64,000 nt of DNA from Cenarchaeum sp. (GTDB lineage: Archaea; Thermoproteota; Nitrososphaeria; Nitrososphaerales; Nitrosopumilaceae): assembly GCA_965242695.1 (NCBI GenBank), contig CBDESU010000002.1:1344001-1408000 (forward strand), written 5' to 3'. Positions 135 to 56,590 of the stretch are shown piece by piece. Below the pieces are notes generated by a model. It made no database searches. It was given only the letters and a program-made list of their open reading frames with translations, and was not told the origin of the DNA. A program made the position numbers and the translations under genes. Within the stretch, counting starts at the first letter, position 1; each line of letters starts with the position of its first letter.

Positions 135-2045
135 ATGGCCACCGACGTGTCCTGGCTGATCGGCGGCCCGCAGGGCAGCGGTGTAGAGTCGGCGGCCAAC
201 ATCTTCTCGCGCGTGTGCGCCAGGCTCGGCTACAACGTGTTCGGCAAGCGCGAGTTCTACTCGAACATAAAGGGCGAGCACAGCTACTTTGTCGTCCGCG
301 TCTCGGACGCCCCCGTCCGCTCCAACGTCAACGACATAGACCTGCTCGTCTCGTATGACGCAGAGACGATATTTCGGCACGCCGAGGACGTGGCCGACAA
401 GTGCGCCGTCCTGTACGACTCGGACCTGGACGCGGTGACGACAGACGACGTAAAGACGCTCGACGCGCCGTTTCGCGCCAGGCTGGAGGCCCACCTCAAG
501 GCGGCTGGCAAGCCGAATACGGTCGCCGGCATACTGGAGATCGCGCAGGCGCGCGGCGCCCACGTGTTCCCAGTCTCGTTCAGCTCGCTGCTCGAAAGGC
601 TCGCGTCCGAGGAGGGAAACCCGCGCCTCAAGGGCATGAAGCGGCTCTTCAACGTCCTCGGCGTGTCGCTCTCGCTCGGCGTCCTGAGCATGCCGACCGA
701 CCCGCTGCTAGAGGCCGTAGACTCGATATTCGCAAAAAAGCCAAAGGTCGCCGAGCTAAACAAGCATGCCGCGCGCCTTGCGTACGCGCGCGGCACCGAG
801 TTTACGGACCTGGACCATTCTCTGCCGCGCATTGAAAAGCGCCCGCATACGATGCTCGTGCAGGGGTTCCAGGGCACGGCCATCGGAAAGATGGTGTGCG
901 GCTGCCGCTTCCAGCCGTACTATCCGATAACGCCGGCATCCGACGAGAGCGTCTACCTAGAGACCAACGAGGTCCTTGCCGTCGAGGGGGACAGGCCGGG
1001 TTCGACCCTGGTCGTGCAGAGCGAGGACGAGATATGCGCCCTGGGGATGACGATCGGGGGCGCCGTCGCTGGCGCCCGCTCGTCGACGTGCACGTCGGGG
1101 CCGGGCTTTTCGCTAATGGCCGAGGCGCTCGGCTGGGCCGGCATCAACGAGGTGCCCGTCGTCGTGACGATGTACCAGCGGAGCGGCCCGTCGACGGGCC
1201 TGCCGACGCGGCACGGCCAGGACGACCTGCTGTTCGCCGTCCACGCGGGGCACGGCGAGTTTCCGCGCATAGTGTACGCGTCGGGCGACGTAGAGGAGAG
1301 CTTTTACGACACGGGGCGGTGCTTCAACTACGCCGACGTGTACCAGGTGCCCGTCGTGCACATGATGGACAAGCTCGTCGCAAGCTCGGTCGTGACGTGC
1401 CCCCGGTTCGACCCCTCGAGGGTTGCGATCGACCGCGGCAAGCTCCTTGCGCGGGTCGAGGAGGGCGCGGACTACCGCCGGTTCGCGCGCTCGGACGACT
1501 GCGTCTCGCCGCGCTCCGTACTGGGCCTCGAGAACGGCGTGTTCTGGAACACGGGCGACGAGAGCGACGAGTACGGCCACATCACCGAGGACCCCGTCGT
1601 GCGAGTCGAGATGATGGACAAGCGCGCCGGCAAGCTGCCCCGCATGCTGCGCGAGATACCCGATGTCGAGCAGGCCGTCTCGTACGGCGTGCGCGAGCAC
1701 ACCGTCGTCAGCTGGGGCTCGGCCAAGGGCGCCGTCCTGGACGCCATCGAGATGCTGCGCGCCGAGGGGATCGACGTCGGGTTCGTACAGGTAAAGCTCC
1801 TCTGCCCGTTCCCCGTGGACTACCTGAGGTTCCTGCTGCGCGACGCAAAGGTCGTCATCGACGTGGAGGCCAACCAGACTGCGCAGCTCGGCCAGCTGAT
1901 GCGGATGCATGCGGGGATCGAGCCGGACCACTGCGTGCTAAAGTACACGGGCCGGGCCATGACGTGCACCGAGGTGCGCGATGCGCTAAGGAGGATAGTC
2001 TCGGGCGGGGCCGAGAAGAGGGAGGTGCTCACCCACGGCGCCTAG
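135..2045 (+). CDS. korA: 2-oxoacid:ferredoxin oxidoreductase subunit alpha (fused gamma-alpha)
   Basis: [40 protein letters not shown] motifs. ATG at 135 chosen over the ORF-track start at 6; CTTAA AT patch ~25 nt upstream. Substrate specificity not determinable. Confidence 0.92.
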
Positions 2046-3027
2046 CGGCACCCTTGCGGGGTACAAGACCGGCGTGCACAACGACTGGTGCCCCGGGTGC
2101 GGCGACTTTGGCATCGTAAACGCCATACAGATGGCGCTCGCCGAGCTCGAGGTGCCGCGCCACCGCGCCGCGCTGTTCTCGGGGATAGGCTGCTCGGGCA
2201 AGACGTCGCACTACGTCAACGTGTACGGCGTGCACACGCTGCACGGCAGGGTGCTGACGTTCGCGCAGGGGGCAAAGCTCGCAAACCCGGGGCTTACCGT
2301 CGTCGCTGCCGGCGGCGACGGCGACGGGCTCGGCATCGGGGCCGGCCACTTTGTGGCCGCCGGCAGGCGCAACATCGACATGACGTACATCGTCTTCGAC
2401 AACGGCGTATACGGCCTGACAAAGGGGCAGGCCTCGCCTACGCTAAAGCTCGGCGAAAAGACAAAGTCCCTGCCGTCGCCGAACACAAACTACAACGTAA
2501 ACCCCATTGGGCTCGCCGTGGCAAGCGGCTACACGTTCGTCGCGCGCGGGTACTCTTACGACGTGCGCCACCTAAAGGACCTCATAAAGGCGGCCGTGCG
2601 CCACAGGGGACTGGCGTTCCTCGACGTCCTCCAGCCGTGCCCCACGTACAACGACATCAACACGCGCGACTGGTACGCCGGCAAGGACCTCAAGGAGCGG
2701 GCGGCGGAGGAGGGGCAGGAGACCGCAGCCGCGCGCCACGCCCGCATATACAAGCTCGAGGAGACGGGGTACGACCCCGTCGTCCACTACAGCGAAGAGT
2801 CCGAGGTCAACACGCGCCTCGGCCAGGCACTCACAAAGTCACTCGAGTGGGGCGACCGCATACCGATCGGCGTGTTCTACCGCAACGAGCTCGTCACGCC
2901 GTACGCCGGCCGCATCGCCGACAAGATACCCAACTACGAGGAGAACCCGCCGGCGGTGCAGCGCATAGAGCGGCAGGGGCGGCCCACGACGGACGTGTCT
3001 GCGCTCCTCGACTCGCTGGAGATCTAG
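2035..3027 (+). CDS. korB: 2-oxoacid:ferredoxin oxidoreductase subunit beta; probable ACG start (first canonical in-frame codon is GTG 2074)
   Basis: [26 protein letters not shown] motif, [18 protein letters not shown] at 2021-2027 lies 7 nt before ACG 2035. Confidence 0.9.
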
Positions 3028-3311
3028 GATGGATGGGGAATGCGACAGGTATCCTGCGGGGCGCAGGCAGCCGCGCCGGCGATCCTGCCGGAGGCCGCGC
3101 CGCTCCCGCGCCCTCGTTGCGATCAAAACTTGGCACACGACGGCTGACCCCGCACACCTGTCCTGCTTGGCGGCTGGGGGTGCGGGGGGGGAGGGCCAAA
3201 GGCGCGCGACGTGTGCGCCGCCGGCAAGGGATAATAAGCCGCCCCCGGCGCGCCGGGCCTGCCAATGCCGCACAGCACGCCGCGGGCCTCCCGCCGGGCC
3301 GGGGAACTGCC

Positions 3312-4961
3312 TTGAGCGGGGAGGATGCCGCCCCTTCCGTCGCGCCACCGCCAGCCGGCGGCGGCGGCAGAGGTGGCTTTGAGGCGCAGCTGCGCTCGCT
3401 CGGGCTGGATCCGGCAAGGGCCCATCGCAACCTGCATCCCGACGAGCTGGCCCGCATGGCCGTAGCCCGCGGCGAGGGCGCGATTGCGAGCACCGGCTCG
3501 CTGTCGGTGCGGACGGGCCGCTACACGGGCCGCTCGCCGGACGACCGCTACATCGTCGACGACGAGACGACGCACGGCACGGTCGACTGGGGCAAGATCA
3601 ACCACCCGCTCGCGCCGGACCTGTTCGCGCGGATCATGGAAAGGATGAAGGCCGCCGCGCGCGAGGCCCCCGAGCTGTTCGTGTTCGACGGCTTTGTCGG
3701 CGCCGATCCTGCCAGCCGCCTGCCGATCCGCGTCATTGGCGACCGCGCCTGGCAGTCGCTGTTCGCCAGGCAGATGTTCATACGGCCGACCGAGTCCGAG
3801 CTCGCCTCGCACGACCCAGAGTTTACCGTCCTGTGCCTCAACGGCTTCGAGGCCGACCCCTCCTCGGACGGGACCAACTCGAACGTCTTCATACTCATCG
3901 ACCTCACGCGCCGGACTGTCCTGATCGGCGGCACGCACTACGCCGGCGAGATCAAAAAGTCCATGTTTACCGTCATGAACTACGTCCTGCCCGCAAGGGG
4001 CATCTTCCCGATGCACTGCTCGGCGAACACGGGCAGGGGCGGGGGCGACACGGCGCTGTTCTTTGGGCTGTCGGGCACGGGCAAGACGTCGCTGTCGGCC
4101 GATCCCGACAGGGGCCTCGTCGGCGACGACGAGCACGGCTGGTCGGACACGGGCGTGTTCAACTTCGAGGGCGGCTGCTACGCAAAGTGCATAAACCTGA
4201 GCCGGGATGCCGAGCCGCAGATATGGGACGCGATCCGGCCGGGAACCGTCCTCGAGAACGTGGTGCTGGCGGGGCCGTCGAACGCGCCGGACTTTGCCGA
4301 CGGCAGCCTCACCGAGAACACGCGGGCCGCCTACCCGCTCGACTACATACCGGGCGCCGTGTCGCCCAGCGTCGGCGGCCACCCCCGCGTGATCGTATTC
4401 CTGACCGCCGACGCGCTCGGCGTCCTCCCGCCCCTCTCGCGCCTCTCGCGCAGCGCGGCCATGTACCACTTCATGTCGGGGTACACGAGCAAGCTTGCGG
4501 GCACGGAGCGCGGCATAAAGGAGCCAAAGGCCGCATTTTCCGAGTGCTTTGGGGCCCCGTTCATGCCGCGGCCGGCGACCGAGTACGCCCGGATGCTCGG
4601 CGAGAAGATCGACCGGCACGGCACGCGCGTGTACCTCGTCAACACGGGGTGGTCTGGCGGGCCGTACGGCGTGGGCAGGCGCATACGGATCGGGCACAGC
4701 CGCGCCATGGTCTCGGCCGTGCTCGGCGGCCGGCTCGACGAGTCCGGCTACCGCCGCGATGCGCTGTTCAACCTCGACGTGCCGGTGTCGTGCCCCGGTG
4801 TGCCGGCCGAGATACTCGACCCGCGCAACACGTGGGACGACAAGGGCGCGTACGACGAGTCGGCCCGCCGCCTCGCCCGCATGTTCGTCGACAACTTTGC
4901 AAAGTTCGGGGGCGCCTCGCCCGACATACGGAACGCGGGGCCGCGCCCCGACGCGTCCTAG
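3312..4961 (+). CDS. pckA: Phosphoenolpyruvate carboxykinase (ATP)
   Basis: TGRSPDDR, YAGEIKK, MHCSAN, FFGLSGTGKT, GDDEHGW, EGGCYAK. Start TTG 3312 inferred; the upstream part of the 2088 ORF is a shadow frame. Confidence 0.93.
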   Translation: MSGEDAAPSVAPPPAGGGGRGGFEAQLRSLGLDPARAHRNLHPDELARMAVARGEGAIASTGSLSVRTGRYTGRSPDDRYIVDDETTHGTVDWGKINHPLAPDLFARIMERMKAAAREAPELFVFDGFVGADPASRLPIRVIGDRAWQSLFARQMFIRPTESELASHDPEFTVLCLNGFEADPSSDGTNSNVFILIDLTRRTVLIGGTHYAGEIKKSMFTVMNYVLPARGIFPMHCSANTGRGGGDTALFFGLSGTGKTSLSADPDRGLVGDDEHGWSDTGVFNFEGGCYAKCINLSRDAEPQIWDAIRPGTVLENVVLAGPSNAPDFADGSLTENTRAAYPLDYIPGAVSPSVGGHPRVIVFLTADALGVLPPLSRLSRSAAMYHFMSGYTSKLAGTERGIKEPKAAFSECFGAPFMPRPATEYARMLGEKIDRHGTRVYLVNTGWSGGPYGVGRRIRIGHSRAMVSAVLGGRLDESGYRRDALFNLDVPVSCPGVPAEILDPRNTWDDKGAYDESARRLARMFVDNFAKFGGASPDIRNAGPRPDAS

Positions 4962-24329: not shown

Positions 24330-24330
24330 G

Positions 24331-30239: not shown

Positions 30240-30292
30240 TGATGTCCTCGGATGTACACCTCGGGCCTACTCCACCTGTGAACGCATCGCTT

Positions 30293-31414: not shown

Positions 31415-31500
31415 GCCGCGCCCGATGCGGCGCCCCATTTATACGGACAGCGGCCGTGCCTGCCCGCCATTCCGGGCCGGAGTGGATCCTACCCCCGTCC

Positions 31501-32274: not shown

Positions 32275-32443
32275 TGCTGACACCGCCGCATCGCACATTT
32301 GTATGGCTCCGATAGTGCGCACGTTGGCCGCTTCGCCTTGCGCCCAAGTCGCATGCCCACTAGGCGCATCGTCCTGCCGCTAGGAGGGGCGATTTTAGAA
32401 TCTGGTCTGCGGAAGGCCCGCAAGGCGCTTGGCGGCATGATGC

Positions 32444-34933: not shown

Positions 34934-35109
34934 CCTCGCCTACCCTGCTGGAAGTTGATCCTGACGGCGAATGCTTTTCCATCCGGCACCAGCTTCCATT
35001 CTATGCAATCTCCCGCCTCCAGGCCAAGGCTCCTGACAATGCTTGAGTGGACAGTTGTTCTTAGCGATCTGCTTTTGCTTGCCTGCGTAAGGCCCGTCTT
35101 CTCGTTCAC
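34930..35109 (-). CDS. AbrB/MazE/SpoVT-type DNA-binding protein (59 aa, not in the ORF track)
   Basis: Hand translation MNEKTGLTQASKSRSLRTTVHSSIVRSLGLEAGDCIEWKLVPDGKAFAVRINFQQGRRG; ATGA overlap with the R-M gene; TTATTATAA ~22 nt upstream. Confidence 0.8.
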   Translation of the reverse strand: MNEKTGLTQASKSRSLRTTVHSSIVRSLGLEAGDCIEWKLVPDGKAFAVRINFQQGRRG

Positions 35110-35696
35110 GATTTGGGCCCGGGCAGGCCGTTATAATAACCTAACAAATGGCGCCTTGGCGTTAGGGGCATGACCCCGATCGCCGTTCTGGTTGTCTTGC
35201 CCTGTGGTCGGATGTGGCGCCTGCCAGATATGGTGGCGCCAGTGTGCACACCTGCTTGGCCGTGGCGCGCGGTGTTGCGTCCCGGCCCGGACGTGCGGTC
35301 CCGGGGGTGCAGAACGGTCACCCTGTCACCGTTGGGCCTGATCGTGCGCCTTTCGAGGAAGGGGGGGATCGGTCTTCTAGATGCCTTGCAATGCAAATTC
35401 TTGCATGCCTCCGACAGTGCGATCCGACCCGCGCAAGACAAATCCCACCCAGACGGATCTCGAGTATCGGAGTCCGGGTTGTGCTCACGTCGAAGGCGGC
35501 CATACCGTTCATGTCCACGAGCCTCCTCTGTGATGTCCGCCCTTACTCTAGGCTGCCATTATGTTATCGTCTGCGGGACAGATCTGCCGCCGCCGCAAGC
35601 GACGCCGCGACCTAGCACAGTGGATCAAAAGAGCCGCCCTGCTTGTGCATAACCATCATGCTTATTGTATATACCAACGCCGTTACTCATTACCGT

Positions 35697-36176
35697 CTAT
35701 GCCAGTTCCTTGTACACGTCAACAAGATTTACCCCACATCGCAATGTTGTGATGGGATGCTTCTTGCCTTTTATCTTAAGTTTCTGCGCGCGCATCCTGG
35801 TGTAAAACGCCCTTGGTACCCGTCGTTTAACGAGTAAGAGCATATTTATATTAGATTCCTGATCTCCAATAACATTAAAGTCCGTTTGTAGTAAAAACTG
35901 TACTCCATTTTTAAACTTTTCAACAATTTGTTCAACTTTGACGCCACTGCTTTTTAATTCGACTAAAATAATCCGGGGTGGCTCTATATCATGAATTATT
36001 ATACAGTCACACATTTTTTTCTTTGTTGTGATTTTTTCGCCCTTTAAAATGGTGTAATTGGAAATTCCGCCTAGACCTAGCTTACAATTGTGCTCACAAC
36101 ACTTGTCAATGACGGCATCCTTAAACGTATTCGTTACACCCGCAATGCTAGCCGGACGCCCTGTTCGCATTGTCAA
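35697..36176 (-). CDS. Putative PD-(D/E)xK nuclease, partner of the ABC-ATPase
   Basis: CDCIII...IILVELKS motif; TTGA coupling to the ATPase; AT-rich. Confidence 0.65.
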   Translation of the reverse strand: MTMRTGRPASIAGVTNTFKDAVIDKCCEHNCKLGLGGISNYTILKGEKITTKKKMCDCIIIHDIEPPRIILVELKSSGVKVEQIVEKFKNGVQFLLQTDFNVIGDQESNINMLLLVKRRVPRAFYTRMRAQKLKIKGKKHPITTLRCGVNLVDVYKELA

Positions 36177-37642
36177 TTTAGACGCTCCTCGATCCGAATG
36201 TCGTCAATGTTTAAAAGATGATCCACTTCTATAAATTCATCCTGTGAGATCCCATCGTCGGTAGACATGGGGATCTTTTTAACTACACTAATGTCATTCT
36301 GGTCCAGTTGAAAAAGATGAGGAGCAACTTCGTCCATGCAGAGATATAGCCCCTCGTCTCCCAGTGCCTGTTCTCTATTTTCGGGTGTTAACTTCGATGC
36401 TTGTAGACACTGGCTGACCACTTCGAGCAGTATTGCGCTGTGGGTCGTGATCATGACATTGATGCCGTTTCTGACCAGACGAACGAGGTGCCTAGCAAGG
36501 AGGCGCTGGCTATATGGATGTAAGTGTGCCTCGGGCTCTTCGACAACCAACAGGTCTTTCTTCTGACCACTGTGTTTTAAGTATAATGTCAGGGGTGCTA
36601 ACTCGGAAATGGCCGAGGATGTTAGATGGACAGGCAGATTCGCACCACGGCGGTGTTTGTAGACTAGTTCGGGGATAGTGTCACCTACACTCGGCTTGAG
36701 GTTTACATGCCCCCTAAATATGTCACTTTCGATCTGCCTTCCCAGCTCGCGATAATGCCCGGCGTGCGGTCGCATTTCAATTATGGACGAAAGAAAGTCC
36801 GAAACCACCCCAGACAAACGTGGGATTTGAATGTTTTCGATACCCCCATACGGCGAACTTCTGATTATTCCGGACGCTATTACTTTCTGTGATTGCAGTA
36901 TACCGTTACGTCCTGCAGGAAAATAGTGACTAACGGCGGGCAGGGATGAAATAGCACTACGTAGCACTTCACGCTCTAGTTTTTCATAAATCGATCTCAT
37001 CATGTGCAAATTTTCTTCACTAGCTAGGTCGTGATGTATTACACAGCGTATCACATTATCACCTGATCTAGTCACATGGCCTGGACCATAACGAGTAGAC
37101 TTGGTTAACTCAAATCCAATGTTAGGATTTTGTATGGAGTTGAGGTTAAAACCATTCGAGCCATGTGTCAAGATGCGATTGCCATTACTTTCTAATGACA
37201 TAAAAAATCGCTGTGACGAAAATCTGGTTAATACGCTGATCGGCGAACTGAAGTTTCGCATAATTTCATTCTCCAGTTTTTTACCAAACCTACGTTTGCA
37301 AAATTGTCCAATTTGAGCTGCTAGCGCTGGTGTGGCATCGACTGGTTCGTTAAGCTTTAATCCGGTCAATTCAGCTCTAATATTCCTGAGCAACTTTCCC
37401 AGATTGTTTGCTTCATTATTAGACCGAATCAGCGGATACGAATCCATGTGTATCTCTCTACTAGATGAAATGACAGAATGCGCAAGCATGGCCGCATATG
37501 ATTTTCCTGTGTTGCTGGGCCCTATAAAAACCGTGAATGGCCTTATCGATATGGCGGCTTTTTTAATGGGCCCAAAGTTATGCACCTTCATGTCTAGGCA
37601 GAGTGGCGTCGTACCCGTTCTCGTAGCCTTTCTCCTGTTCAC
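36173..37642 (-). CDS. AAA_15/AAA_21-type ABC ATPase
   Basis: NFGPI, GPSNTGKS (Walker A), SSAISEL, EEPEAHLHP (Walker B/D-loop), TTHS. Confidence 0.88.
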   Translation of the reverse strand: MNRRKATRTGTTPLCLDMKVHNFGPIKKAAISIRPFTVFIGPSNTGKSYAAMLAHSVISSSREIHMDSYPLIRSNNEANNLGKLLRNIRAELTGLKLNEPVDATPALAAQIGQFCKRRFGKKLENEIMRNFSSPISVLTRFSSQRFFMSLESNGNRILTHGSNGFNLNSIQNPNIGFELTKSTRYGPGHVTRSGDNVIRCVIHHDLASEENLHMMRSIYEKLEREVLRSAISSLPAVSHYFPAGRNGILQSQKVIASGIIRSSPYGGIENIQIPRLSGVVSDFLSSIIEMRPHAGHYRELGRQIESDIFRGHVNLKPSVGDTIPELVYKHRRGANLPVHLTSSAISELAPLTLYLKHSGQKKDLLVVEEPEAHLHPYSQRLLARHLVRLVRNGINVMITTHSAILLEVVSQCLQASKLTPENREQALGDEGLYLCMDEVAPHLFQLDQNDISVVKKIPMSTDDGISQDEFIEVDHLLNIDDIRIEERLN

Positions 37643-38046
37643 GCGGCCCCGCGCCGAGCCGTGCCATATATGTCATAGGGCGCCCACCGTAACATGCCTC
37701 CGCTCCCCCCCCCCCACAGAATGCCACGCTGCCGATCGCTCAACTGATGTCACTTCTCCGCCCTAGGCCGCACCTGTGGGCTGCCTAGTGACTGGCTTCG
37801 GGCGGTGGCTTGGGGCGGCCTTGTGGGACCTAGAGATGAATGGCTGTCGTGCCCTGCATGTTGACTAACGATCGCACGGCACCGCTACCGACACACTCCG
37901 CCAACTCCACCATTATGTTTGTGACGGTATGCGGACGCTTGCCTCCCCGTCCGTCTAGGCAGACGCCTACCCTCTGTCTTAACTTGGGACCTACGTCCTG
38001 GCACCGCCGATGATACGTTTTAATCGCCGCCGTCCCTGCGCCTGCC

Positions 38047-39336
38047 GTGAACGTCACGGAGAAGATACTCGCGCGCGCGTCCGGCCGACGGTCCGTCTCG
38101 CCCGGCGACGTCGTGGTCGCCGGCATAGACCGCGCCATGGTCCACGACGTCTCCGGCCCCGGCGTCATAAAGGTCTTTGAGCGCCTAGAGGCCGAGGGCA
38201 TCGACACGTCGCGGCTGTGGGACCCGTCGCGCGTGTGGGTCGCCGAGGACCACTTCGTGCCGTCGGCCGAGAAGATATCGGCCGAGAACGTGGCACGGCT
38301 GGAGCGCTTTGCCGAGTCGCGTGGGGTGGCGCGCCACTTCAAGTACGGCATGGGCCAGTACGGCATATGCCACACCCTGTCCCACGAGGAGGCCATGGTG
38401 GCGCCCGGCGAGGTGTACGTCGGCGGCGACTCGCACACGAACACGACGGGGGCGCTCGGCGCGTTCGCATGCGGCCTTGGTCACACCGACATGGCGTACG
38501 CCCTGCTGCACGGCCGCATGTGGTTCCGCGTGCCAGAGGCGCTGTTGCTCAGGGTCCGCGGCCCACTCCCGCCCCATACTATGGCAAAGGACCTCATACT
38601 GCGCATCATTGGCGACATCGGCACCGACGGCGCAGCGTACCGGACCATGGAGTTTGCAGGCGACGGCGTCTCTGCAATGTCCGTCGAGGAGCGGCTCACG
38701 CTCACGAACATGACGACCGAGGCCGGCGCCAAGAACGGGATCGTCGAGCCGGACGCAAAGGTGGCAGAGTACCTGTCTTCGAAGGGCGCCGGCCAGGCCG
38801 CGTGCGATGCCTCGTCGTACACGCACGGCGACGGCGACGAGGGCGACTATGCGAGGGTGCTAGAGTACGACGGCCCCGAAATCGAGCCGCTCGTGGCCGA
38901 GCCGTTCTCGCCGGCCAACGTGGCGCCGGCGCGCGACGAGTCGTCTGTCGAGCTCGACAAGGCGTACATCGGGTCGTGCACGGGGGCAAAGATGGACGAC
39001 CTAGAGGCGGCCGCGCGCATCCTAAAGGGGCGCACCGTCAGGATACGCACCGAGGTAGTCCCGGCGGCCATCTCGATATACCGGAGGGCCGTCGAGCGGG
39101 GCCTCGTCTCGATCTTTTTGGCCGCCGGAGCCACGGTCGGGCCGCCTACGTGCGGGGCGTGCTGCGGCGCGCACATGGGCGTGCTCGGCGCCGGCGAGGT
39201 GTGCGTGAGCACGACCAACCGCAACTTTCCCGGGCGCATGGGGCACGTCGAGTCGCGCACGTACCTTGCGTCGCCGCAGGTGGCCGCCGCCTCGGCCGTT
39301 ACTGGGCGCATAACCGACCCGAGGGATCTGAATTGA
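38047..39336 (+). CDS. Archaeal-type isopropylmalate isomerase/homoaconitase large subunit
   Basis: DH, GICH, DSHT, IGSCTG, CGACCG, STTNRNFPGRMG. Confidence 0.9.
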   Translation: MNVTEKILARASGRRSVSPGDVVVAGIDRAMVHDVSGPGVIKVFERLEAEGIDTSRLWDPSRVWVAEDHFVPSAEKISAENVARLERFAESRGVARHFKYGMGQYGICHTLSHEEAMVAPGEVYVGGDSHTNTTGALGAFACGLGHTDMAYALLHGRMWFRVPEALLLRVRGPLPPHTMAKDLILRIIGDIGTDGAAYRTMEFAGDGVSAMSVEERLTLTNMTTEAGAKNGIVEPDAKVAEYLSSKGAGQAACDASSYTHGDGDEGDYARVLEYDGPEIEPLVAEPFSPANVAPARDESSVELDKAYIGSCTGAKMDDLEAAARILKGRTVRIRTEVVPAAISIYRRAVERGLVSIFLAAGATVGPPTCGACCGAHMGVLGAGEVCVSTTNRNFPGRMGHVESRTYLASPQVAAASAVTGRITDPRDLN

Positions 39337-39869
39337 GGGGCAAGGCCATAAAGTACGAGCGCGACAACATCGACACCGACGTGATCATACCCGGCGCGTA
39401 CCTAAAGATCCACGACCACGACGAGCTCGCAAGGCACGCCATGGAGGGGCTGGACGCGTCGTTCGCCGAAAAGGCCGCCGGCGGATCGTTCGTCGTGGCC
39501 GGGCGCAACTTCGGGTGCGGCTCGTCGCGCGAGCACGCCCCGATCGCCCTGTCCCGCTCGGGGGTGCGCGGCGTGATCGCCGTCTCGTTCGCGCGCATAT
39601 TCTACCGCAACTCGGTCGACGGCGCGTTCCTGCTGCCCATCGAGGTCGGCGAGGACGTGTACCGGTCGATCTCGGACGGCGACGAGCTCGACGTCGACGT
39701 CGACGCGGGGACTGTATCGAACGCGGCGACGGGGGCCGTTCACCGGATCAGGCCCTTTCCGGACGTAGTCCTCAAGATCATCCGCGCCGGCGGGCTGTTC
39801 AAGGTCGACCTGGACGCGCTGGCCGACGCCGGTGACGGGGCCGGCAAGGGGGGCGGGGGCGGGCAATGA
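39333..39869 (+). CDS. Archaeal-type isopropylmalate isomerase/homoaconitase small subunit
   Basis: [31 protein letters not shown]; TTG 39333. Confidence 0.9.
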
Positions 39870-41332
39870 CGGCCGGGGATGCGGGCTCCGGCTCTGGCGG
39901 CGGAGGCGGCCCCCGCACCATGCTCGACAAGATCTGGGATGCGCACGAGGTCGCGCGCCGGCCCGGCGGAGGCGGCCCCTCCCTCCTGTACGTCGACAGG
40001 CACCTTGTCCACGAGGTGACGTCGCCGCAGGCGTTCGCCGGCCTGCGCGCCGCCGGCAGGCGCGTCCGCCGCCCCGACCTGACGCTCGCCACGGCCGACC
40101 ACAACGTGCCGACGACGGCCCGCGGCCGGTCTCTGCCCATGGCCGACGGCACGTCGGCAGCCCAGCTCGAGGCGCTCTCGCGCAACTGCGGCGAGTTTGG
40201 CATCGAGCTGTTCGGGATGGGGCACCCCGACCAGGGCATAGTGCACGTCATCGGGCCAGAGCTCGGCTTTACGCTGCCCGGCGCGACGATCGTCTGCGGC
40301 GACAGCCACACCTCGACGCACGGCGCGTTCGGCGCCCTCGCGTTCGGCATCGGCACGAGCGAGGTCGAGCACGTCCTGGCCTCGCAGTCCGTCTGGATGC
40401 ACAGGCCCGAGTCGATGCTCGTGAGGATGGAGGGGTTGCTGCCGGGCACGGGGGCCGTGACGGCAAAGGACGCCATCCTGTCTGTCATACGCGAGACGGG
40501 CACGGCCGGCGCGACCGGCGCCGTAATCGAGTACGCCGGGCCGGCCGTCTCGGCCATGACGATGGAGGAGAGGATGACCGTGTGCAACATGTCCATCGAG
40601 GCCGGCGCGAGGGCCGGAATGGTCGCCCCCGACGATCGCACGTTCGAGTTTCTGCGAGGCAGGCGGTACGCGCCGGCCGGCGATGCGTTCGACGAGGCCG
40701 CAGAGGCGTGGCGGTCCCTCCCGTCCGACCCGTCCGCGCGGCACGACCGCGAGCTCGAGCTTGACGCATCGGCGATCGCCCCGCAGGTCAGCTGGGGGAC
40801 GAGCCCCGGCATGACGTGCGACGTGACCGGCTCCGTTCCCGACCCCGCCGAGTACGCCGCCGGCGATGCGGGCCAGGAGGACGGCGCGCGCGCGGCCCTC
40901 GAGTACATGGGGCTAGAGGCGGGCACGCCCATGACCGACGTGAGGATCGACCGCGTGTTCATCGGGTCGTGCACGAACGCGCGGCTAGGCGACCTTGCCG
41001 AGGCCGCCCGGGTCGCGCGCGGCCGCCGGGTCGCCGGCGGCGTGCGCGCAATGGTCGTACCCGGCTCGCAGTCCGTCAAGCGCGCAGCCGAGGAGGCCGG
41101 CCTCGACGCCGTGTTCCGCGACGCGGGGTTCGAGTGGCGCGAGCCCGGCTGCAGCATGTGCCTGGGGATGAACCCAGATGTCCTGGCATCCGGCGAGCGG
41201 TGCGCGAGCACGTCCAACCGGAACTTCGAGGGCAGGCAGGGCGCCGGCGGCCGCACGCACCTTGTCAGCCCCGTAATGGCGGCAGCGGCGGCCGTCGCCG
41301 GCAGGTTCGTCGACGTGCGGGAGTGGATCTGA
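39866..41332 (+). CDS. leuC: 3-isopropylmalate dehydratase large subunit (bacterial type)
   Basis: [52 protein letters not shown]. Confidence 0.95.
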
Positions 41333-41333: not shown

Positions 41334-41972
41334 ACGCGCCCGTTCAGGGCCGTGACGAGCCCCGCCGTCCCCCTCGGCAGGGTCAACGTCGACACCGACC
41401 AGATAGTCCCAAAGCAGTTCCTCAAGCTCGTCGAGCGCACGGGGTTCGGCGAGCACCTGTTCCACAACTGGCGCAGGCTGCCCGACGGCGCCGCGCCGGA
41501 CCCGTCGTTCGTCCTCAACGATCCCGCCTACGAGTCCGCCCGCATCCTGGTCGCCGGCGACAACTTTGGGTGCGGCTCGTCGCGCGAGCACGCCGTATGG
41601 GCCCTGCTCGACTACGGGTTCGACGTGGTGATCGCCCCGTCGTTTGCCGACATATTCTACGGCAACTGCTTCAAGAACGGCCTGCTGCCCGTCGCGCTCG
41701 GCCGCGCCGACGTCGACGCGCTGCTCGCCGCATCGGCCGTACGGCCCGGCGCCGGGCCGCCCCCGCCCATCTCTGTCGACCTCGAGGCGCAGACCGTCTC
41801 GGCCGCCTGCATCGGCACGGTCGGGTTCGAGATCGGCGCCGACCGCCGGGCCGCCCTCCTCGGCGGCATGGACGAGATCGACCTCACGCTCGGGCAGTAC
41901 GGCGGGGCGATCTCTTCGTTCGAGTCCGGGCCGGGCGCGCCGCCATCCGCGCTACGATCTCGGCGGCCGTAG
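41334..41972 (+). CDS. leuD: 3-isopropylmalate dehydratase small subunit; probable ACG start (GTG 41352 alternative)
   Basis: [39 protein letters not shown] matches the usual LeuD M-x-[PK]-F start. Confidence 0.92.
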
Positions 41973-48332: not shown

Positions 48333-49006
48333 TGGCTGGCATGAGGCGGCAGCAGGTCATGCCGGGAGACGTCATCACCTCGGGCTCCTACCGCCCCGAT
48401 GCGAACACCGTCACGATGGACGGCAGCATCGTCTCGACGGCCGTCGGCATGTCCGAGATATACGAGGATACCGTACGCGTCATACCCATGGCCGGCATGT
48501 ACTATCCGCTCGTCAACGACTTTGTCATCGCCATGATCACCTCGCACACGTCGCTCGCCTGGGAGGCCGAGATGAACTCGTGCTATGTTGGGTTCCTGCC
48601 CGCAAGCGACGTGTTTGGGCGCGACTTTGCCTCCCACGCCGACGCCCTCACGTCGCGCCTCAAGAAGGGCGACCTGATCGCGGCCCGCGTGGCCAACTTT
48701 GACCGCACGCGCGACCCGCTGCTCACGGTCGCCGACCGCGACCTCGGCAAGATCGACGCCGGCGAGCTGGTTCGGGTCACGCCTGGCAACGTCTCGCGGC
48801 TGATCGGCAAGCGCGGGTCGATGATCCAGGCCATCGAGACGGCCACCGACTCGGTCGTCACGATCGGCCAGAACGGGTGGGTCGTAATCTCGTGCGAGAG
48901 CCCCGATGGCTTATTAAAGGCAAAAAGGGCCGTGCAGGTGATTGAGGCGCAGTCTAACACGCCAAACCTCACGGAGCGCGTCAAGTCGCTCTTGGCGTCA
49001 GGGTGA
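48329..49006 (+). CDS. rrp4: Exosome RNA-binding protein Rrp4
   Basis: VMPGD, S1 and KH domains (RLIGKRGSMI, IGQNGWV). Confidence 0.93.
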   Translation: MMAGMRRQQVMPGDVITSGSYRPDANTVTMDGSIVSTAVGMSEIYEDTVRVIPMAGMYYPLVNDFVIAMITSHTSLAWEAEMNSCYVGFLPASDVFGRDFASHADALTSRLKKGDLIAARVANFDRTRDPLLTVADRDLGKIDAGELVRVTPGNVSRLIGKRGSMIQAIETATDSVVTIGQNGWVVISCESPDGLLKAKRAVQVIEAQSNTPNLTERVKSLLASG

Positions 49007-49009
49007 TGC

Positions 49010-49795
49010 ATGATGGGCGGGCGAGACACGGACGTCGTACTGCTCGACAAGGACGGGCTGAGGTGCGACGGGCGCAGGATCGACCAGACGCGGCGCGTGG
49101 AGATAAAGGCCGGCGTCCTCAAGAACGCCCACGGCTCGGCGTACATCGAGTTCGGCGACAACAAGATACTCGCCGGCGTGTTCGGGCCGCGCGACGTACA
49201 CCCAAAGCACCTCTCGGACACGGACACGGGCATCCTGCGCTGCCGCTACCACATGTCGCCGTTCTCCGTGTCCGACCGCAAGAACCCCGCCCCGTCGCGC
49301 CGCGAGATCGAGATATCAAAGGTCATCAAGGAGGCCCTAGAGCCGGCCCTCATGCTAGAGCAGTTTCCGCGCACCGTCGTCGACGTGTTCATGGAGATAC
49401 TCCAGGCCGACGGCGGGTCGCGCTGCGCTGCCCTCGCCGCCGCCTCGGTGGCGCTCGCCGACGCGGGCATCCCGATGAGGGACATGGTGAGCGCGTGCGC
49501 CGCCGGCAAGGTGGCCGACACGATAGTCCTCGACGTCAACAACGAAGAGGACCAGGCCGGCCAGGCGGACATGCCCGTGGGATACATGCCGAACCTGGAC
49601 AGGGTCACGCTCATACAGCTAGACGGCGTGCTCACGCCCGACGAGTACGGGCTGTGCATGAGGACTGCGATTGACGGGTGCAGGCAGGTGTACGAGGTGC
49701 AAAAGCGGGCGCTGGCCGACAAGTACTTTACGGGCGGCGAGGGCGGCGGCCGCGAGAGGACGGCATCGATGGGGGGGCGCGTAGTTGGTGCATAG
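49010..49795 (+). CDS. rrp41: Exosome exonuclease Rrp41
   Basis: RCDGR, GSAYIEFG, YHMSPFS, SRREIEISK, QADGGSR. Confidence 0.95.
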   Translation: MMGGRDTDVVLLDKDGLRCDGRRIDQTRRVEIKAGVLKNAHGSAYIEFGDNKILAGVFGPRDVHPKHLSDTDTGILRCRYHMSPFSVSDRKNPAPSRREIEISKVIKEALEPALMLEQFPRTVVDVFMEILQADGGSRCAALAAASVALADAGIPMRDMVSACAAGKVADTIVLDVNNEEDQAGQADMPVGYMPNLDRVTLIQLDGVLTPDEYGLCMRTAIDGCRQVYEVQKRALADKYFTGGEGGGRERTASMGGRVVGA

Positions 49796-50729
49796 GACCA
49801 TTATCGACGACCTGAAGCGGTCGCGAATATTCAAGCTCGCCGACGACGGGCGGCGCCAGGACGGGCGCGGCATGGACGAGCCGCGCCGGCTGCGCATCGA
49901 GACCGGGGTCGTCCCAAAGGCCGAGGGATCGGCGCGCGTCTTTTTGGGCGACACAGAGGTGGTCGCCGGCGTAAAGGTAAAGCCCGACCGCCCGTTCCCC
50001 GACGTCGGCGACAGGGGGATATTCATCTGCACGGCCGAGGTGCTGCCGCTTGCGCACCAGGACGTCGAGACGGGGCCCCCGCAGCCGCCGGTGATTGAGC
50101 TTGCAAGGGTCGTCGACCGCGGCATCCGCGAGAGCGGCATGGTCGACCTCAAGCAGCTCGTGCTCGCGCCGAACAAGTCTGTCATCGGCGTGTTCGTCGA
50201 CAACAGCGTGATCGACGTCGACGGCAACCTGTTCGACGCGTGCTCGTACGCGTCGACCGCGGCCCTGCTGACGGCGCGCATACCAAAGTGGGAGTACCGC
50301 GACGATGCGCCGGCGCGCGTGGAGGGGCAGACCATGCCGGCTCCGATAACGACGGTGCCCGTCTCGGTGACGATGGCAAAGGTCCACGGCCAGATCATGG
50401 TCGACCCCACGCAGGACGAGTGGACCGCGATGGAGGCGCGCGTGACGATCACGACAAACTCGGACGGCAACATCTGCGCGCTGCAAAAGGGCGGGCCGTC
50501 TGGCTTTACGTACGACGAGCTGGAGCGGTGCGGCCGCCTGTCGGTGTCGATCGGCGCGCGCGTGCGCGAGACGATCAAGAAGGCGGCCCCTCCGCCGGCG
50601 GACGGCGGCGAAGGCGGCGGGTGCTGCGGCGGCCACGGCGGGGAGGACAGCTGCGGCGGCAGCGGCGGCCAGGGGCAGCCGCAGCCGCAGCCGTACATCC
50701 AGCCCGGGCCCTACGGCAGCGGCCCCTAG
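49785..50729 (+). CDS. rrp42: Exosome subunit Rrp42 with Gly/Cys/His tail
   Basis: RQDGR, AEGSARV, ELARVVDRGIRES, DGNLFDA, LQKGG. Confidence 0.95.
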   Translation: MVHRTIIDDLKRSRIFKLADDGRRQDGRGMDEPRRLRIETGVVPKAEGSARVFLGDTEVVAGVKVKPDRPFPDVGDRGIFICTAEVLPLAHQDVETGPPQPPVIELARVVDRGIRESGMVDLKQLVLAPNKSVIGVFVDNSVIDVDGNLFDACSYASTAALLTARIPKWEYRDDAPARVEGQTMPAPITTVPVSVTMAKVHGQIMVDPTQDEWTAMEARVTITTNSDGNICALQKGGPSGFTYDELERCGRLSVSIGARVRETIKKAAPPPADGGEGGGCCGGHGGEDSCGGSGGQGQPQPQPYIQPGPYGSGP

Positions 50730-50750
50730 CACGGCGGGGGTGGGGGCGGC

Positions 50751-50960
50751 ACGGCGCGCAAAAAGTCGCTAAAGGGGCTCGGCGCCAGGTACGGCATCAA
50801 GATACGCAAGGAGTACACAAAGGTGCACCTGGGCCTAAAGGCCAAGAGGCAGTGCCCCGAGTGCGGCTCTGGGCGGTTTGGGCGCCTGGCCGTCGGCATC
50901 TGGCACTGCACAAAGTGCGGCTACAAGGTCGCCGGCACGGCGTATGACGTCAAGGTATAG
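50751..50960 (+). CDS. rpl37ae: 50S ribosomal protein L37ae (eL43); ACG start, missed by the ORF track
   Basis: Hand translation (T)ARKKSLKGLGARYGIKIRKEYTKVHLGLKAKRQCPECGSGRFGRLAVGIWHCTKCGYKVAGTAYDVKV; C4 zinc ribbon; expected position after rrp42. Confidence 0.93.
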   Translation, partial: TARKKSLKGLGARYGIKIRKEYTKVHLGLKAKRQCPECGSGRFGRLAVGIWHCTKCGYKVAGTAYDVKV

Positions 50961-51354
50961 CGCCCGCATCGGCGTTGCCGCGGGCGACAGGGCCGCGGCC
51001 GTCCTTGCCGCCGTCGAGGCCGACGCGCAGTTCCACCCGGACTCGGGCCAGGAGGCGGCCGTCCGCGTGCTGGCAGGCAGGGCCGCCGGCGCCGCCGCCG
51101 CCGGAGCCGATGCGCGGCCGGCCGGCGCCGGGGACATCCGCATAGGCATAGACGCCGACCAGCTGCCGCACCTGCGGGCCGGGGTCAGCTCTACCCTGCG
51201 CCTTGTCCAGGCAGCGTACGAGTCGATCGGGGCGGTCGCGGCCGCACCGGCGGCTGCGGCGCCCGGGAAAGGGGGGCCGCCGGCCGCCCGACACGGCCGC
51301 CCGCGGGCGGCGGGTCGGGGCCAGGGCGCGGCGGCCGCGGGCGGCCGGCGGTAG
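50944..51354 (+). CDS. pcc1: KEOPS subunit Pcc1-like protein
   Basis: IRIGIDA.QLPHLRAGVSSTLRLVQAA; located between rpl37ae and pfdB. Confidence 0.75.
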   Translation: MTSRYSARIGVAAGDRAAAVLAAVEADAQFHPDSGQEAAVRVLAGRAAGAAAAGADARPAGAGDIRIGIDADQLPHLRAGVSSTLRLVQAAYESIGAVAAAPAAAAPGKGGPPAARHGRPRAAGRGQGAAAAGGRR

Positions 51355-55211: not shown

Positions 55212-56075
55212 ATGGGCGGGTACGCGCACCCCGAGGTCCTCGTAGAGACGGACTGGGTGGCGGCCAACCCGCCGTCGTCGTCGCCCGGCAGCGAGCGCCG
55301 CCTCGTAGAGGTCGACTACGACCCAGAGAACGCCTACCGCAGGGGCCACATCGAGGGGGCGACGCTCGTGTGGTGGAGGCGCGACATCAACGACCCCGTC
55401 ACGCGCGACATCGTGGACAGGGCGCAGTTTGAGAGGCTCATGTCGAGGAACGGCATAGGGCCCGACACCGAGGTCGTCCTGTACGGCGACTTCAACAACT
55501 GGTTTGCCGCGTTTGCGTTCTGGGTCTTCAAGTACTATGGACACCGCAACGTGCGCATCATGAACGGAGGCCGCAAAAAGTGGGAGATCGAGGGGCGCCC
55601 CTACACGACAGACGAGCCGCAGGTGCGGCCCTCCGAGTACGCCGCGCCCCCTCCGGACGAGGGCCTCAGGGCGTACCTGCCGGACGTGCGCAGGGCCCTC
55701 GGCAGGGACGGCAGCGCGCTAGTCGACGTGCGCTCGCCCAAGGAGTTTTCCGGCGAGATTACCGCGCCCCCCGAGTACCCGACCGAGAACGCGCAGCGCG
55801 GGGGGCACATACCCGGCGCGAGCAGCATTCCGTGGGCGACTGCCGTCAACGACGCCGACGGCACGTTCAAGAGCGCCGACGAGCTGCGCGCCAACTACGA
55901 GCCAAAGGGCGTGACGGCAGACAAGGACGTCGTGTGCTACTGCCGCATCGGCGAGCGCTCGTCGCACTCTTGGTTCGTCCTAAAGTACCTCCTCGGCTAC
56001 CCGCAGGTGCGCAACTACGACGGGTCGTGGACCGAGTGGGGCAACATGATCGGCAACCCGGTAGAGCGGGCGTGA
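55212..56075 (+). CDS. Tandem-domain rhodanese/sulfurtransferase
   Basis: GHIEGA, DVRSPKEFSG, GHIPGA, YCRIGERS, NYDGSWTEWG. Confidence 0.94.
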   Translation: MGGYAHPEVLVETDWVAANPPSSSPGSERRLVEVDYDPENAYRRGHIEGATLVWWRRDINDPVTRDIVDRAQFERLMSRNGIGPDTEVVLYGDFNNWFAAFAFWVFKYYGHRNVRIMNGGRKKWEIEGRPYTTDEPQVRPSEYAAPPPDEGLRAYLPDVRRALGRDGSALVDVRSPKEFSGEITAPPEYPTENAQRGGHIPGASSIPWATAVNDADGTFKSADELRANYEPKGVTADKDVVCYCRIGERSSHSWFVLKYLLGYPQVRNYDGSWTEWGNMIGNPVERA

Positions 56076-56422
56076 GCGGCAAAGACGGAGGGGGCGCGGC
56101 GGCCGCAGAGCCGCCCGTCCTTGAAAAGGGGGCGTTCTTTCGCATCCTTGACGGCGGCGGCTCGTACGTGCTAGCCGACATGACAAAGCGCGGCCTGGAG
56201 GCGCGCTCGCGGTCGGTCGACGAGGATGCCGGCGTAGAGGCCGACAAGGGCGTCATACACGACATGGACGGCATCGGGCACGAGGTCCCGATACGGTGGT
56301 TCTTCCCGAAGGATCGGCACGGCCTCGGGGACGTGCTCGAGCGGGCGCGGAGGCTGGAGGCAAAGTACGCAAGGCTTCGCGAGCTTACGTGCCCCGACGG
56401 CGGCGGCAGCGACGGCGGGTAG
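56072..56422 (+). CDS. Hypothetical protein coupled to the rhodanese gene
   Basis: GTGA overlap; globular composition ending in LRELTCP. Confidence 0.7.
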   Translation: MSGKDGGGAAAAEPPVLEKGAFFRILDGGGSYVLADMTKRGLEARSRSVDEDAGVEADKGVIHDMDGIGHEVPIRWFFPKDRHGLGDVLERARRLEAKYARLRELTCPDGGGSDGG

Positions 56423-56515
56423 GGGGCGGCGCTCCCTCACCCTGCCCGTCGCCGTGCGCGCGCTGCCGCGCCTCGTCCTCAAAAGCTTAATTATCGAACG
56501 GCGCGGCGCGCGCCC

Positions 56516-56590
56516 GGACCCGTGGCACAGTTTGGATAGTGCGGGCGGTTCCGGACCGCCAGGTCGGGGGATCGAAGCCCCCCGGGCCCT
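56516..56590 (+). tRNA. tRNA-Arg(CCG)
   Basis: D-arm GCAC/GTGC; anticodon stem GGCGG/CCGCC with loop TTCCGGA; T-arm GGGGG-ATCGAAG-CCCCC; AAAAGCTTAATTAT promoter at 56481-56494. Confidence 0.93.

Follow-up and report, generated by a model that had tools for sequence, protein, structure and literature searches.

Can translation in an archaeon begin at ACG? We address this question in a stretch of 64,000 nucleotides from Cenarchaeum sp., a sponge-associated archaeon (the window; all of its features given below lie on the forward strand). A preliminary description of the window noted that three conserved genes, korB, leuD and rpl37ae, carry ACG where the initiator methionine is expected, each 7–8 nt after an SD-like motif, and both direct reading and alignment with relatives bear this out. 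To our knowledge, ACG is not among the starts listed in NCBI table 11. A 2020 review of archaeal initiation gives AUG, GUG and UUG only, with no occurrence of 'ACG' in its text (PMC7531240), and our literature search found no experimental demonstration of ACG initiation in any archaeon. From the sequence comparisons described here, ACG appears to serve as a start signal in this organism and its closest relatives.

We compared the source genome (G000), a two-contig assembly that may derive from long reads, with a sister species (G004) and the relatives G002, G001, G003 and G017, of which the first three belong to the same genus as G000. The GC content is 67–68 % in G000 compared to 57.5 % in G001. 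The shared starts are ATG, GTG and TTG in 95, 63 and 31 cases in G000 versus 124, 25 and 40 in G001.

ACG codons at the ancestral starts of korB, rpl37ae and leuD

The motif ahead of korB is GGAGGTG (2021–2027), which corresponds to GAGGGAGGTG or GAGGGAGGTA in G001–G004 and is complementary to the 16S 3' end GGAUCACCUCC. Seven nucleotides after it, alignment with relatives places the ancestral start at ACG (2035–2037). The codon is ACG in G000, G004 and G002 and ATG in G001, G003 and G017, with in-frame stops 13, 25 and 19 codons 5' of the ACG and no canonical start between. Read from ACG, korB (2035–3027) encodes a 2-oxoacid:ferredoxin oxidoreductase beta subunit with the Pfam domains TPP_enzyme_C and PFO_beta_C, and the first canonical codon after the ACG is a GTG (Val) at 2074. 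Its 5' end is overlapped by the korA ORF (3–2045), whose TAG stop (2043–2045) lies at +8 relative to the ACG. GGAGGTG by itself is uninformative as start evidence; most of its 656 copies in the genome are GAG-GTG codons within coding sequence, and no start signal follows them.

Upstream of rpl37ae, an rrp42-like ORF ends at a TAG (50727–50729) that shares the rpl37ae frame only in G000. It is followed by GGGGGTG (50736–50742, by direct reading; GGAGGT in G004) and, 8 nt further, by ACG at the ancestral start (50751–50753), also ACG in G004. The gene read from this codon (50751–50960) encodes ribosomal protein L37ae (Pfam Ribosomal_L37ae), and from the in-frame TAG onward there is no in-frame ATG, GTG or TTG before GTG 50823. 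In the alignment, the remaining 23 loci show ATG, TTG or GTG at the ACG codon or up to three codons upstream. Within the 23 codons preceding GTG 50823, G000 and G004 show four differences, all synonymous. TAG and ACG are 21 nt apart in G000 and 17 nt apart in G004, which rules out a conserved read-through fusion of the rrp42-like gene and rpl37ae. The ACG at this gene is confirmed by a contig from a run of another study, which has no difference from G000 over 48915–51025. No 100 %-identical L37ae was found among the 120 proteins listed of 335 matched.

The third gene, leuD (41334–41972), encodes the 3-isopropylmalate dehydratase small subunit (Pfam Aconitase_C). Direct reading gives GGGAGTGG at 41319–41326, with GGGAG conserved in relatives, and 7 nt later ACG at the ancestral start (41334–41336). 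This ACG stands 1 nt after the TGA of leuC, a stop at −4 relative to it. The N-terminus reads T-R-P-F in G000 and G004, M-R-P-F in G001 and G002, M-E-P-F in G003 and M-K-K-F in G017. An in-frame GTG at codon +6 (41352–41354), kept in G000 and G004, is a possible replacement start, the relatives of the same genus having GTA, GTC or GCC at this codon. We consider that leuD is probably among the working ACG starts.

The preliminary description had grouped two further anomalies with these genes. At the ancestral start of cbf5, a CTG (24927–24929) overlaps the TGA of the upstream gene (24928–24930). The resulting CTGA, found in G000 and G004, is indeed homologous to the TTGA of four relatives. It does not belong with the ACG genes: an indel-rich stretch with 10–13 extra codons comes after the CTGA in these two genomes, and an in-frame, usable ATG at 24981 lies 54 nt 3' of the CTG, at a codon that is Leu in relatives. 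The gene read from this canonical ATG (24981–26042) has the Pfam domains DKCLD, TruB_N, TruB_C_2 and PUA from residue 2. Most likely the cbf5 start has shifted to the downstream ATG and the CTG is probably no longer a start. The earlier proposal of near-cognate initiation at both ACG and CUG is supported for ACG as a functional site, while its CUG case has probably been abandoned.

The other anomaly, an A3:C70 mismatch in tRNA-Arg(CCG) (56516–56590; ARAGORN and sequence), is real, and the independent contig shows no difference over 55268–57000. The mismatch recurs in the Arg tRNAs of five relatives across two genera, namely in the tRNA-Arg(CCG) of G004 and G002, which is identical or nearly so, and in the tRNA-Arg(UCG) of G001, G003 and G017. 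As it is present in lower-GC relatives that use ATG at the genes in question, we rejected it as part of the ACG phenomenon and as a GC-driven anomaly. CDAT8-type C-to-U editing of this tRNA was set aside as well: A3:C70 is not lineage-specific, and the PF00383 protein of G000 has no extra domain by eye. As a separate observation, carB contains a candidate BHB intron.

Genome-wide survey and evidence for translation

We screened the starts of about 1100 orthologue pairs using the genome of one relative for comparison, with manual curation of 63 noisy candidates as the last step. This alignment of N-termini, which the preliminary description had recommended, added five genes: guaA, uppS, a methyltransferase gene, a GTPase-like gene and a membrane protein gene. 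ACG thus stands at the ancestral start of eight genes among about 1100 orthologues. The earlier wording that the lineage initiates "routinely" in this way is overstated given this count and the 189 canonical codons at 189 well-defined shared starts. In all eight genes the N-terminal alignment pairs the ACG with the start codon of relatives. The ACG is common to G004 in six of the eight and to G002 in two, and the homologous codon is canonical in all eight for G001 and G003 and in seven for G017, where the methyltransferase N-terminus is unaligned; the lower-GC relatives have ATG, TTG or GTG at these sites. Every one of the genes has, in one or more genomes, an upstream stop in frame and no ATG, GTG or TTG between this stop and the ACG. 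The next canonical codon downstream varies by genome (+9 versus +29 in uppS, +8 versus +39 in the methyltransferase gene, +13 versus +3 in the GTPase-like gene).

The ACG pattern is not due to chance, since every convincing start-less gene has ACG at or adjoining the ancestral start, whereas at internal conserved Met columns ACG accounts for just 44 of 1017 non-canonical replacements (CTG, CTC, ATC and ATA together make up 508). No non-canonical codon other than ACG was seen at start positions that lack another start. Reassignment of ACG to Met is excluded because inside genes ACG behaves as a normal Thr codon (Thr in 3330 of 4173 internal ACG columns, Met in 44) and its elongator, tRNA-Thr(CGU), is present, of ordinary length and without an initiator-type anticodon arm.

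To evaluate coding behind the ACG we counted the substitutions between G000 and G004 from the ACG to the next canonical codon in six genes (64 codons). The differences fall 2, 5 and 17 on codon positions 1, 2 and 3 and affect 13 codons synonymously and 5 non-synonymously, with zero indels (binomial P = 1.9e-4). For comparison, the 60 nt upstream of the ACG in five of these genes have 11, 18 and 10 differences by position, with no periodicity and with 62 of 300 positions unaligned. The excess of third-position differences (17 of 24) and the lack of indels indicate that the stretch behind the ACG is translated and under purifying selection. The pattern holds for the pooled genes, the counts per gene being too small to decide for leuD, guaA and the membrane protein gene.

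Proposed initiation at ACG and its alternatives

The ACG starts tend to be associated with an SD and with an operon-internal position. An exact SD match of at least 4 nt precedes six of the eight ACG genes, and 51 of the 189 genes with canonical starts have one (Fisher P = 0.008); uppS has just GGGGGCGG, and no match precedes the GTPase-like gene. The 16S 3' end does carry the anti-SD. Five genes (korB, leuD, rpl37ae, guaA and uppS) start at most 38 nt from where an upstream ORF on the same strand stops, or overlap that stop. A TAG also precedes the methyltransferase gene by about 20 nt, but the ORF that it ends is shorter than 80 aa, and the GTPase-like and membrane protein genes have promoter-like boxes of their own. 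This association fits near-cognate initiation. We give a probability of roughly 55 % to near-cognate initiation at ACG that was fixed by GC pressure and is mostly aided by an SD and operon coupling. That at least eight G000 genes, including korB, rpl37ae, guaA, uppS and probably leuD, form a working ACG set seems to us slightly favored by the odds.

Under near-cognate initiation, GC-biased mutation would have changed ATG to ACG by a T-to-C transition, as the same pressure would have changed ATG to GTG elsewhere, and the ACG would have been tolerated and then long retained, the korB ACG being common to three species. We infer that the decoding tRNA would be the ordinary initiator Met-tRNA (anticodon CAU), which would read ACG despite a C-A mismatch at the middle base, much as non-AUG starts are read in eukaryotes; the N-terminal residue and the efficiency of the start are likewise inferred. 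At most sites the ribosome may be held by a G-rich SD 5–9 nt upstream that pairs with the 16S 3' end, and it may also be delivered from an upstream operon gene whose stop is at most 40 nt away. As a point against this reading, no change in the initiation machinery accompanying ACG is visible in aIF1 (identical in G000 and G004, with 11 mostly conservative differences from G001 by eye) or in the initiator tRNA (100 % identical between G000 and G004, with the same anticodon arm in all five genomes).

One gene, the GTPase-like one at G000:C1:848658 on the minus strand, fits the mechanism poorly. It has ACG in both G000 and G004, no SD, and a conserved, TATA-like TTAAAT box about 22–28 nt upstream, so that by the usual archaeal promoter geometry its mRNA would have little or no leader. 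Initiation on leaderless transcripts is considered to depend on codon-anticodon pairing, and this ACG is therefore hard to explain by initiation with a mismatch. It would be easier to understand if the RNA read AUG, which is the prediction of C-to-U mRNA editing that converts ACG to AUG before translation. A single C-to-U change would make every ACG case canonical, and a start that serves an essential ribosomal protein can be expected to be efficient. We nevertheless regard editing as improbable. It does not predict the enrichment in SD and operon-internal positions, and no motif common to the ACG sites was seen beyond the G-rich SD. Editing-like replacements do not stand out elsewhere, with TGG>CGG accounting for 3 of about 1,250 top-listed Trp replacements at conserved columns and, among about 1,450 top-listed Cys replacements there, TGY>CGC for 8. 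We know of no C-to-U editing of mRNA in archaea or bacteria. The PF00383 search gave one match each in G000, G004 and also ATG-using G001, thus no deaminase of this family specific to the ACG lineage, and by eye the G000 protein resembles a dCMP deaminase and shows no RNA-binding domain. An archaeal C-to-U RNA change is known from Methanopyrus kandleri, in which CDAT8 edits C8 to U8 in tRNAs (PMC3695527). That enzyme acts at tRNA position 8, whereas the mismatch in tRNA-Arg here is at 3:70.

A somewhat stronger contender than editing, though still unlikely, is that the ACG codons are dead starts, with translation beginning at the next in-frame canonical codon, the proteins shortened and the upstream conservation residual. 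Start migration is real in this lineage, as cbf5 illustrates with its change from TTG to CTG, its indels and a new ATG where relatives have Leu. Canonical codons lie 5–8 codons 3' of the ACG in leuD (GTG at +6 in G000 and G004), guaA (+5) and the membrane protein gene (ATG at +8, absent in G004), where the test for lack of an alternative start is weak. In addition, a 94 %-identical L37ae from another assembly begins MVGGTARKK..., which puts a canonical start four codons ahead of the Thr. The pooled substitution pattern speaks against dead starts, and so do the exclusively synonymous differences of rpl37ae alone. L37ae would moreover lose 24 N-terminal residues conserved in 25 of 25 loci, and KorB its conserved DYKT segment; in uppS, the methyltransferase gene and the GTPase-like gene the downstream candidates are not conserved while the ACG is. 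Least probable by far are sequencing or assembly errors or decaying pseudogenes. G000 is a two-contig, perhaps long-read assembly, and near rpl37ae an out-of-frame GTG (50740) within a G-run would come into frame by a 1-nt indel. The same ACG is nevertheless found in separate assemblies (six genes in G004, two in G002), and the contig of the other study matches both of its regions without a difference. Nor would one frame error account for both G000 and G004, the nearest upstream candidate being a TTG 7 nt from the ACG in G004 versus the GTG 8 nt away in G000. Purifying selection on the genes, among which korB, guaA and rpl37ae are core genes, argues against decay.

Relation to known systems and significance

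ACG is a known near-cognate start in eukaryotes and viruses, as in AAV VP2 and Sendai C'. The likeness lies in an ACG at the start site that initiator Met-tRNA presumably decodes despite a mismatch at the middle base, and the archaeal factors aIF1, aIF1A and aIF2 are described as homologous to the eukaryotic ones (PMC6237735). The eukaryotic case differs in relying on scanning and Kozak context instead of SD pairing and operon position, and its ACG is an alternative isoform start while here it would be the sole start of essential genes. ACG-to-AUG editing in plant organelles, as in ndhD and psbL, likewise involves a genomic ACG at the conserved start of intact genes whose relatives have ATG. 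We know of no PPR/DYW-type machinery in archaea and, unlike in plant organelles, there is no other editing-like T-to-C signal in the coding positions of G000.

Among rare bacterial starts, the AUU of infC is comparable, being a prokaryotic start of non-canonical type that follows an SD-like motif, although in our genes ACG is the only such codon and is stable across species. In a measurement of all 64 codons in E. coli, ACG reached 0.1–1 % of AUG, below AUA, AUC, AUU and CUG (10.1101/063800), and a ribosomal protein made from a codon of this weakest class would be surprising. Termination-reinitiation coupling has been described in archaea and subunit pairs are reported as coupled (PMC6728339, PMC10666635). 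Similarly, five of the eight ACG genes lie near or overlap an upstream stop, including korA/korB and leuC/leuD, whereas the cases described are ATGA or TGATG overlaps with canonical starts.

Gene callers assume AUG, GUG and UUG, and genes starting at ACG would be missed, truncated or wrongly extended in GC-rich sponge symbionts. If editing were true, it would be the first C-to-U system for archaeal mRNA, creating the starts of at least 7–8 core genes, one on a probably leaderless transcript, and an edited RNA would mean a form of RNA editing new to prokaryotes. If instead ACG itself initiates, a natural lineage would have kept an ACG start of essential genes (L37ae, KorB, GMP synthase and UppS) across speciation. 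Such a lineage would provide a natural test of the stringency of the eukaryote-like archaeal initiation (aIF1, aIF2 and initiator tRNA) and would show how far GC pressure can push the start codon.

ACG codons at conserved gene starts

The studied genome (G000; two contigs, 3.89 Mb, 67–68 % GC), of which the window is C2:1344001-1408000, belongs with its relatives to a single family of archaea with small genomes; its genus includes four other genomes (G001 to G004). The preliminary description had pointed to ACG at the expected initiator position of three conserved genes, and direct reading of the sequence bore out their coordinates and spacings: korB (ACG at 2035, GGAGGTG 7 nt before), leuD (41334, GGGAGTGG 7 nt before and the leuC stop 1 nt before) and rpl37ae (50751, GGGGGTG 8 nt before). 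The 16S rRNA ends in GGAUCACCUCC and these Shine-Dalgarno-like (SD) motifs are therefore able to pair with it. The codon at the korB start position, preceded by a conserved GAGGGAGGT motif in the four relatives of the same genus, is ATG in G001, G003 and the further relative G017 and ACG in G000, its sister species G004 and G002. At this position leuD has ATG in G001 and G002 (M-R-P-F), G003 (M-E-P-F) and G017 (M-K-K-F) and with ACG in G000 and G004 (T-R-P-F). For rpl37ae, 23 of the 25 loci read have ATG, TTG or GTG at the aligned codon or at most 3 codons upstream, followed by AKKKSLKGLGARYG; G000 and G004, its closest relative, have ACG at the aligned codon. In G000 this ACG follows an in-frame TAG by eight codons, and the first canonical codon is a GTG 24 codons further on. 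A read-through fusion of rrp42 and rpl37ae was rejected, since the shared frame of the two in G000 is not kept in G004, where they are 17 nt apart. An L37ae from other assemblies (P0003, 94 % identical) reads MVGGTARKKSL..., retaining Thr at the old start position with a canonical start four codons upstream, and may represent a third lineage, in which the lost start was restored at a new position.

Sequencing or assembly errors are excluded as the source of the ACG codons, which recur in other assemblies. Sponge metagenome runs of several studies contain the stretch covered by the window, and the names of L37ae homologues point to sponge-associated Cenarchaeum-type archaea. Contigs of four runs were compared with the window, using those with no differences; a contig from a run of another study is identical over 48915–51025, which includes rpl37ae, and over 55268–57000. 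Elsewhere in the window, GC falls from about 0.70 to 0.53–0.63 and synteny with G004 is broken at 24001–40000, which holds ORFs of 1210 aa (26607–30239, plus strand) and 829 aa (32444–34933, minus strand) and is possibly an acquired island.

To extend the search to the genome, we called stop-to-stop ORFs in G000 and G001 (2.0 of 2.045 Mb of the latter), leaving 1300 reciprocal best pairs once shadow frames were removed, 1106 of them with at least 100 bits. Screens based on the starts of BLAST HSPs were dropped as too noisy, G001 giving as many matches as G000; conserved promoters, overlapping upstream genes in another frame and rRNA all contributed to the noise. We used instead a screen anchored on the N-terminal similarity boundary, which is clean in 585 pairs, and a hand-curated relaxed screen. 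Canonical starts fall at the same place in both genomes in 189 pairs, and a G000 ACG stands opposite the G001 start in four: rpl37ae, guaA, uppS and a methyltransferase gene. In all four, the 30 codons before the ACG are free of canonical starts. The eight other near-cognate cases (AAG, ATC, CTG, ATT) mostly have one 1–10 codons upstream or 2–4 downstream. The relaxed screen yielded 63 candidates of which 6 were kept; it recovered korB and leuD and brought in two more, a GTPase-like gene and one for a membrane protein, giving eight ACG genes in total. The five sites beyond korB, leuD and rpl37ae are at G000:C2:112552 and, on the minus strand, with the first base of the codon at C1:2018265, C2:1089063, C1:848658 (the GTPase-like gene) and C2:1519012. 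Targeted searches in G001 to G004 and G017 found ACG in six of these in G004 (korB, leuD, rpl37ae, guaA, uppS and the GTPase-like gene) and in two in G002 (korB and the methyltransferase gene), with canonical codons at all remaining positions.

By simple count, ACG is not in excess: of the G000 codons that stand opposite G001 starts, about 125 are non-canonical and 4 of these are ACG, a fraction not above its 3.2 % share of codons. The argument consequently rests on the genes without an alternative start. Genome-wide, the triplets 0–15 nt behind GGAGGTG, GGAGG, GAGGTG, GGGGTG and GGAGTG gave no start signal, just the 3-nt periodicity of coding sequence, so that starts here are not findable from SD motifs alone.

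Two further observations came from these comparisons. G001, the lower-GC genome, has CTG at the start of a kae1-like ORF (G1|-|348874, in coordinates of the 2.0-Mb join with the minus strand counted from the end; no canonical start in 58 codons upstream) and of a ribH-like ORF (G1|+|1743830, same join; stop directly upstream), where G000 has GTG or ATG; non-canonical starts may thus not be confined to the GC-rich species. The G000 ORF C1|-|97990|99799 (reverse complement of C1, counted from the end) and its G001 orthologue share some 13 codons (PP.G.STRTEWWD) ahead of their first canonical start, a TTG. This stretch is nearly identical in nucleotides, almost without synonymous differences, and could be a conserved leader, a regulatory RNA or another unusual start.

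Proposed initiation at ACG and its alternatives

Each of the eight genes has, in one genome or more, an in-frame upstream stop with no canonical codon between it and the ACG. For uppS, the methyltransferase gene and the GTPase-like gene, the next canonical codon downstream differs between genomes. In the six genes common to G000 and G004, the intervals from ACG to the next canonical codon (64 codons) hold 24 differences, distributed 2/5/17 over codon positions 1/2/3, and correspond to 13 synonymous versus 5 non-synonymous codon changes with no indels (P = 1.9e-4). Over the 60 nt upstream of ACG in five of these genes the distribution is 11/18/10, with one fifth of positions unalignable. The third-position bias behind ACG, unlike the upstream pattern, argues that translation probably begins at the ACG or just before it. 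Among internal conserved Met codons, ACG accounts for 44 of 1017 non-canonical replacements, far fewer than CTG, CTC, ATC or ATA; at starts without an alternative, ACG is the only replacement seen.

How such codons would be read can be considered in several ways. A reassignment of ACG was rejected, the codon being otherwise a normal Thr codon. Also rejected was an additional initiator-like tRNA whose anticodon would be CGU: the sole CGT match of the anticodon-arm pattern had flanks that showed no tRNA-like features by eye, and ARAGORN run with introns gave many false matches in this search. Editing of ACG to AUG in the mRNA, proposed in the preliminary description beside near-cognate initiation, finds no positive support. 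The cytidine/dCMP deaminase domain PF00383 gives one match each in G000, G001 and G004 and three in G003; this search brought up no deaminase confined to the genomes that carry ACG, and conserved Trp or Cys codons show no editing-like excess of T to C. Editing would, however, explain the GTPase-like gene, which has ACG in both G000 and G004, no SD motif and, some 25 nt before the codon, a conserved TTAAAT box; this geometry suggests a leaderless mRNA. This gene does not fit well with initiation on a ribosome placed by SD pairing or coupling. As a separate observation, G002 has 13 PF00383 matches, of which 12 fall within open frames of about 430–1000 aa, in what looks like an expanded family of proteins with this domain in one symbiont.

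The surroundings of the ACG genes agree with the ordinary initiator tRNA starting translation on a pre-positioned ribosome. An SD motif precedes 6 of the 8 ACG genes, compared to 51 of 189 genes with canonical starts (P = 0.008), and five lie directly behind, or overlap, the stop of the upstream gene in the same operon. SD pairing or coupling to the upstream gene would place the ribosome at the ACG, where the ordinary initiator tRNA could then initiate, while GC pressure would drive the change from ATG to ACG. That pressure is visible in the shared starts, whose ATG/GTG/TTG counts shift from 124/25/40 in G001 to 95/63/31 in G000. Besides the GTPase-like gene, other points speak against this reading: ACG is described as a very poor start in E. 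coli (10.1101/063800), and the searched text of a review of archaeal initiation makes no mention of it as a start (PMC7531240). Nor did aIF1 or the initiator tRNA show a telling change when the genomes that carry ACG were compared with the others. The G000 initiator tRNA gene itself (G000:C2:98993-99081, 89 nt) is labelled Thr(ggt) or Arg(gcg) by ARAGORN. Its D-arm region contains an additional segment of about 15 bases, in which G001 and G003 differ from G000; this segment may be a non-canonical tRNA intron.

Anomalies of a different nature

The preliminary description had grouped two further anomalies with the ACG starts. One is the CTGA overlap of cbf5, where CTG has indeed replaced the TTG of an ancestral TTGA in G000 and G004. 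In both, 10–13 codons of GC-rich, indel-rich and poorly conserved sequence follow, and then an ATG stands where relatives have Leu, directly before the conserved RV(I/L)D(Q/E)D. The simplest reading is that the start moved to this ATG; continued initiation at the CTG would be less simple. The other, the A3:C70 mismatch of tRNA-Arg, drops out: it is identical in tRNA-Arg(CCG) of G004 and G002 and present in tRNA-Arg(UCG) of G001, G003 and G017, and by this comparison is a trait that the Arg tRNAs of these relatives have in common, with no link to GC pressure or to the ACG starts. Rfam gave no match in the whole window at gathering score and no tRNA at E ≤ 1 around 56516–56590, though ARAGORN finds there the tRNA-Arg conserved in relatives.

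Outside the window, a 'start-less' match of the ACG screen brought up an element of 22 nt in carB (G000:C1:1606833-1606854, minus strand; L199 354..333) that shifts the frame and splits the gene precisely at the boundary of the ...IGEAGE and FDYSGSQ... codons. Of 29 carB loci from the order, 21 have an element at this position, with lengths of 17, 20, 21, 22, 23 or 30 nt and often an internal stop codon; the other 8 read straight through. The fold of the element consists of a 4-bp helix with a 3-nt bulge beside it, plus an inner hairpin, with both junctions at the cleavage positions expected of the archaeal splicing endonuclease in a bulge-helix-bulge motif, and the inner helix covaries, both sides having changed in 7–9 of the 21 sequences at three pairs. 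It looks like a candidate endonuclease-spliced intron in an mRNA; according to a 2009 paper, such splicing had by then been confirmed for cbf5 only (PMC2738675). At the 5' end of carB in G001 (L066 ~3800-3830, minus strand), hand reading of the frame upstream of ILVLGSG gives GAG ACG CTA AAG AGG ATA CTT GTG, directly after the carA TGA, with ACG as a candidate start and GTG as the alternative.

Probable ACG starts in an archaeal clade

Non-canonical starts are already known, as are initiation at ACG in eukaryotes and ACG to AUG editing in plant organelles, the latter lacking positive support in the G000 lineage. The literature searched does not report ACG starts for archaea or for these symbionts. 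As far as that literature goes, the set of probable ACG starts on core genes of this archaeal clade, kept stable in evolution, is new, and sponge holobiont data of kinds already in use would allow it to be tested.
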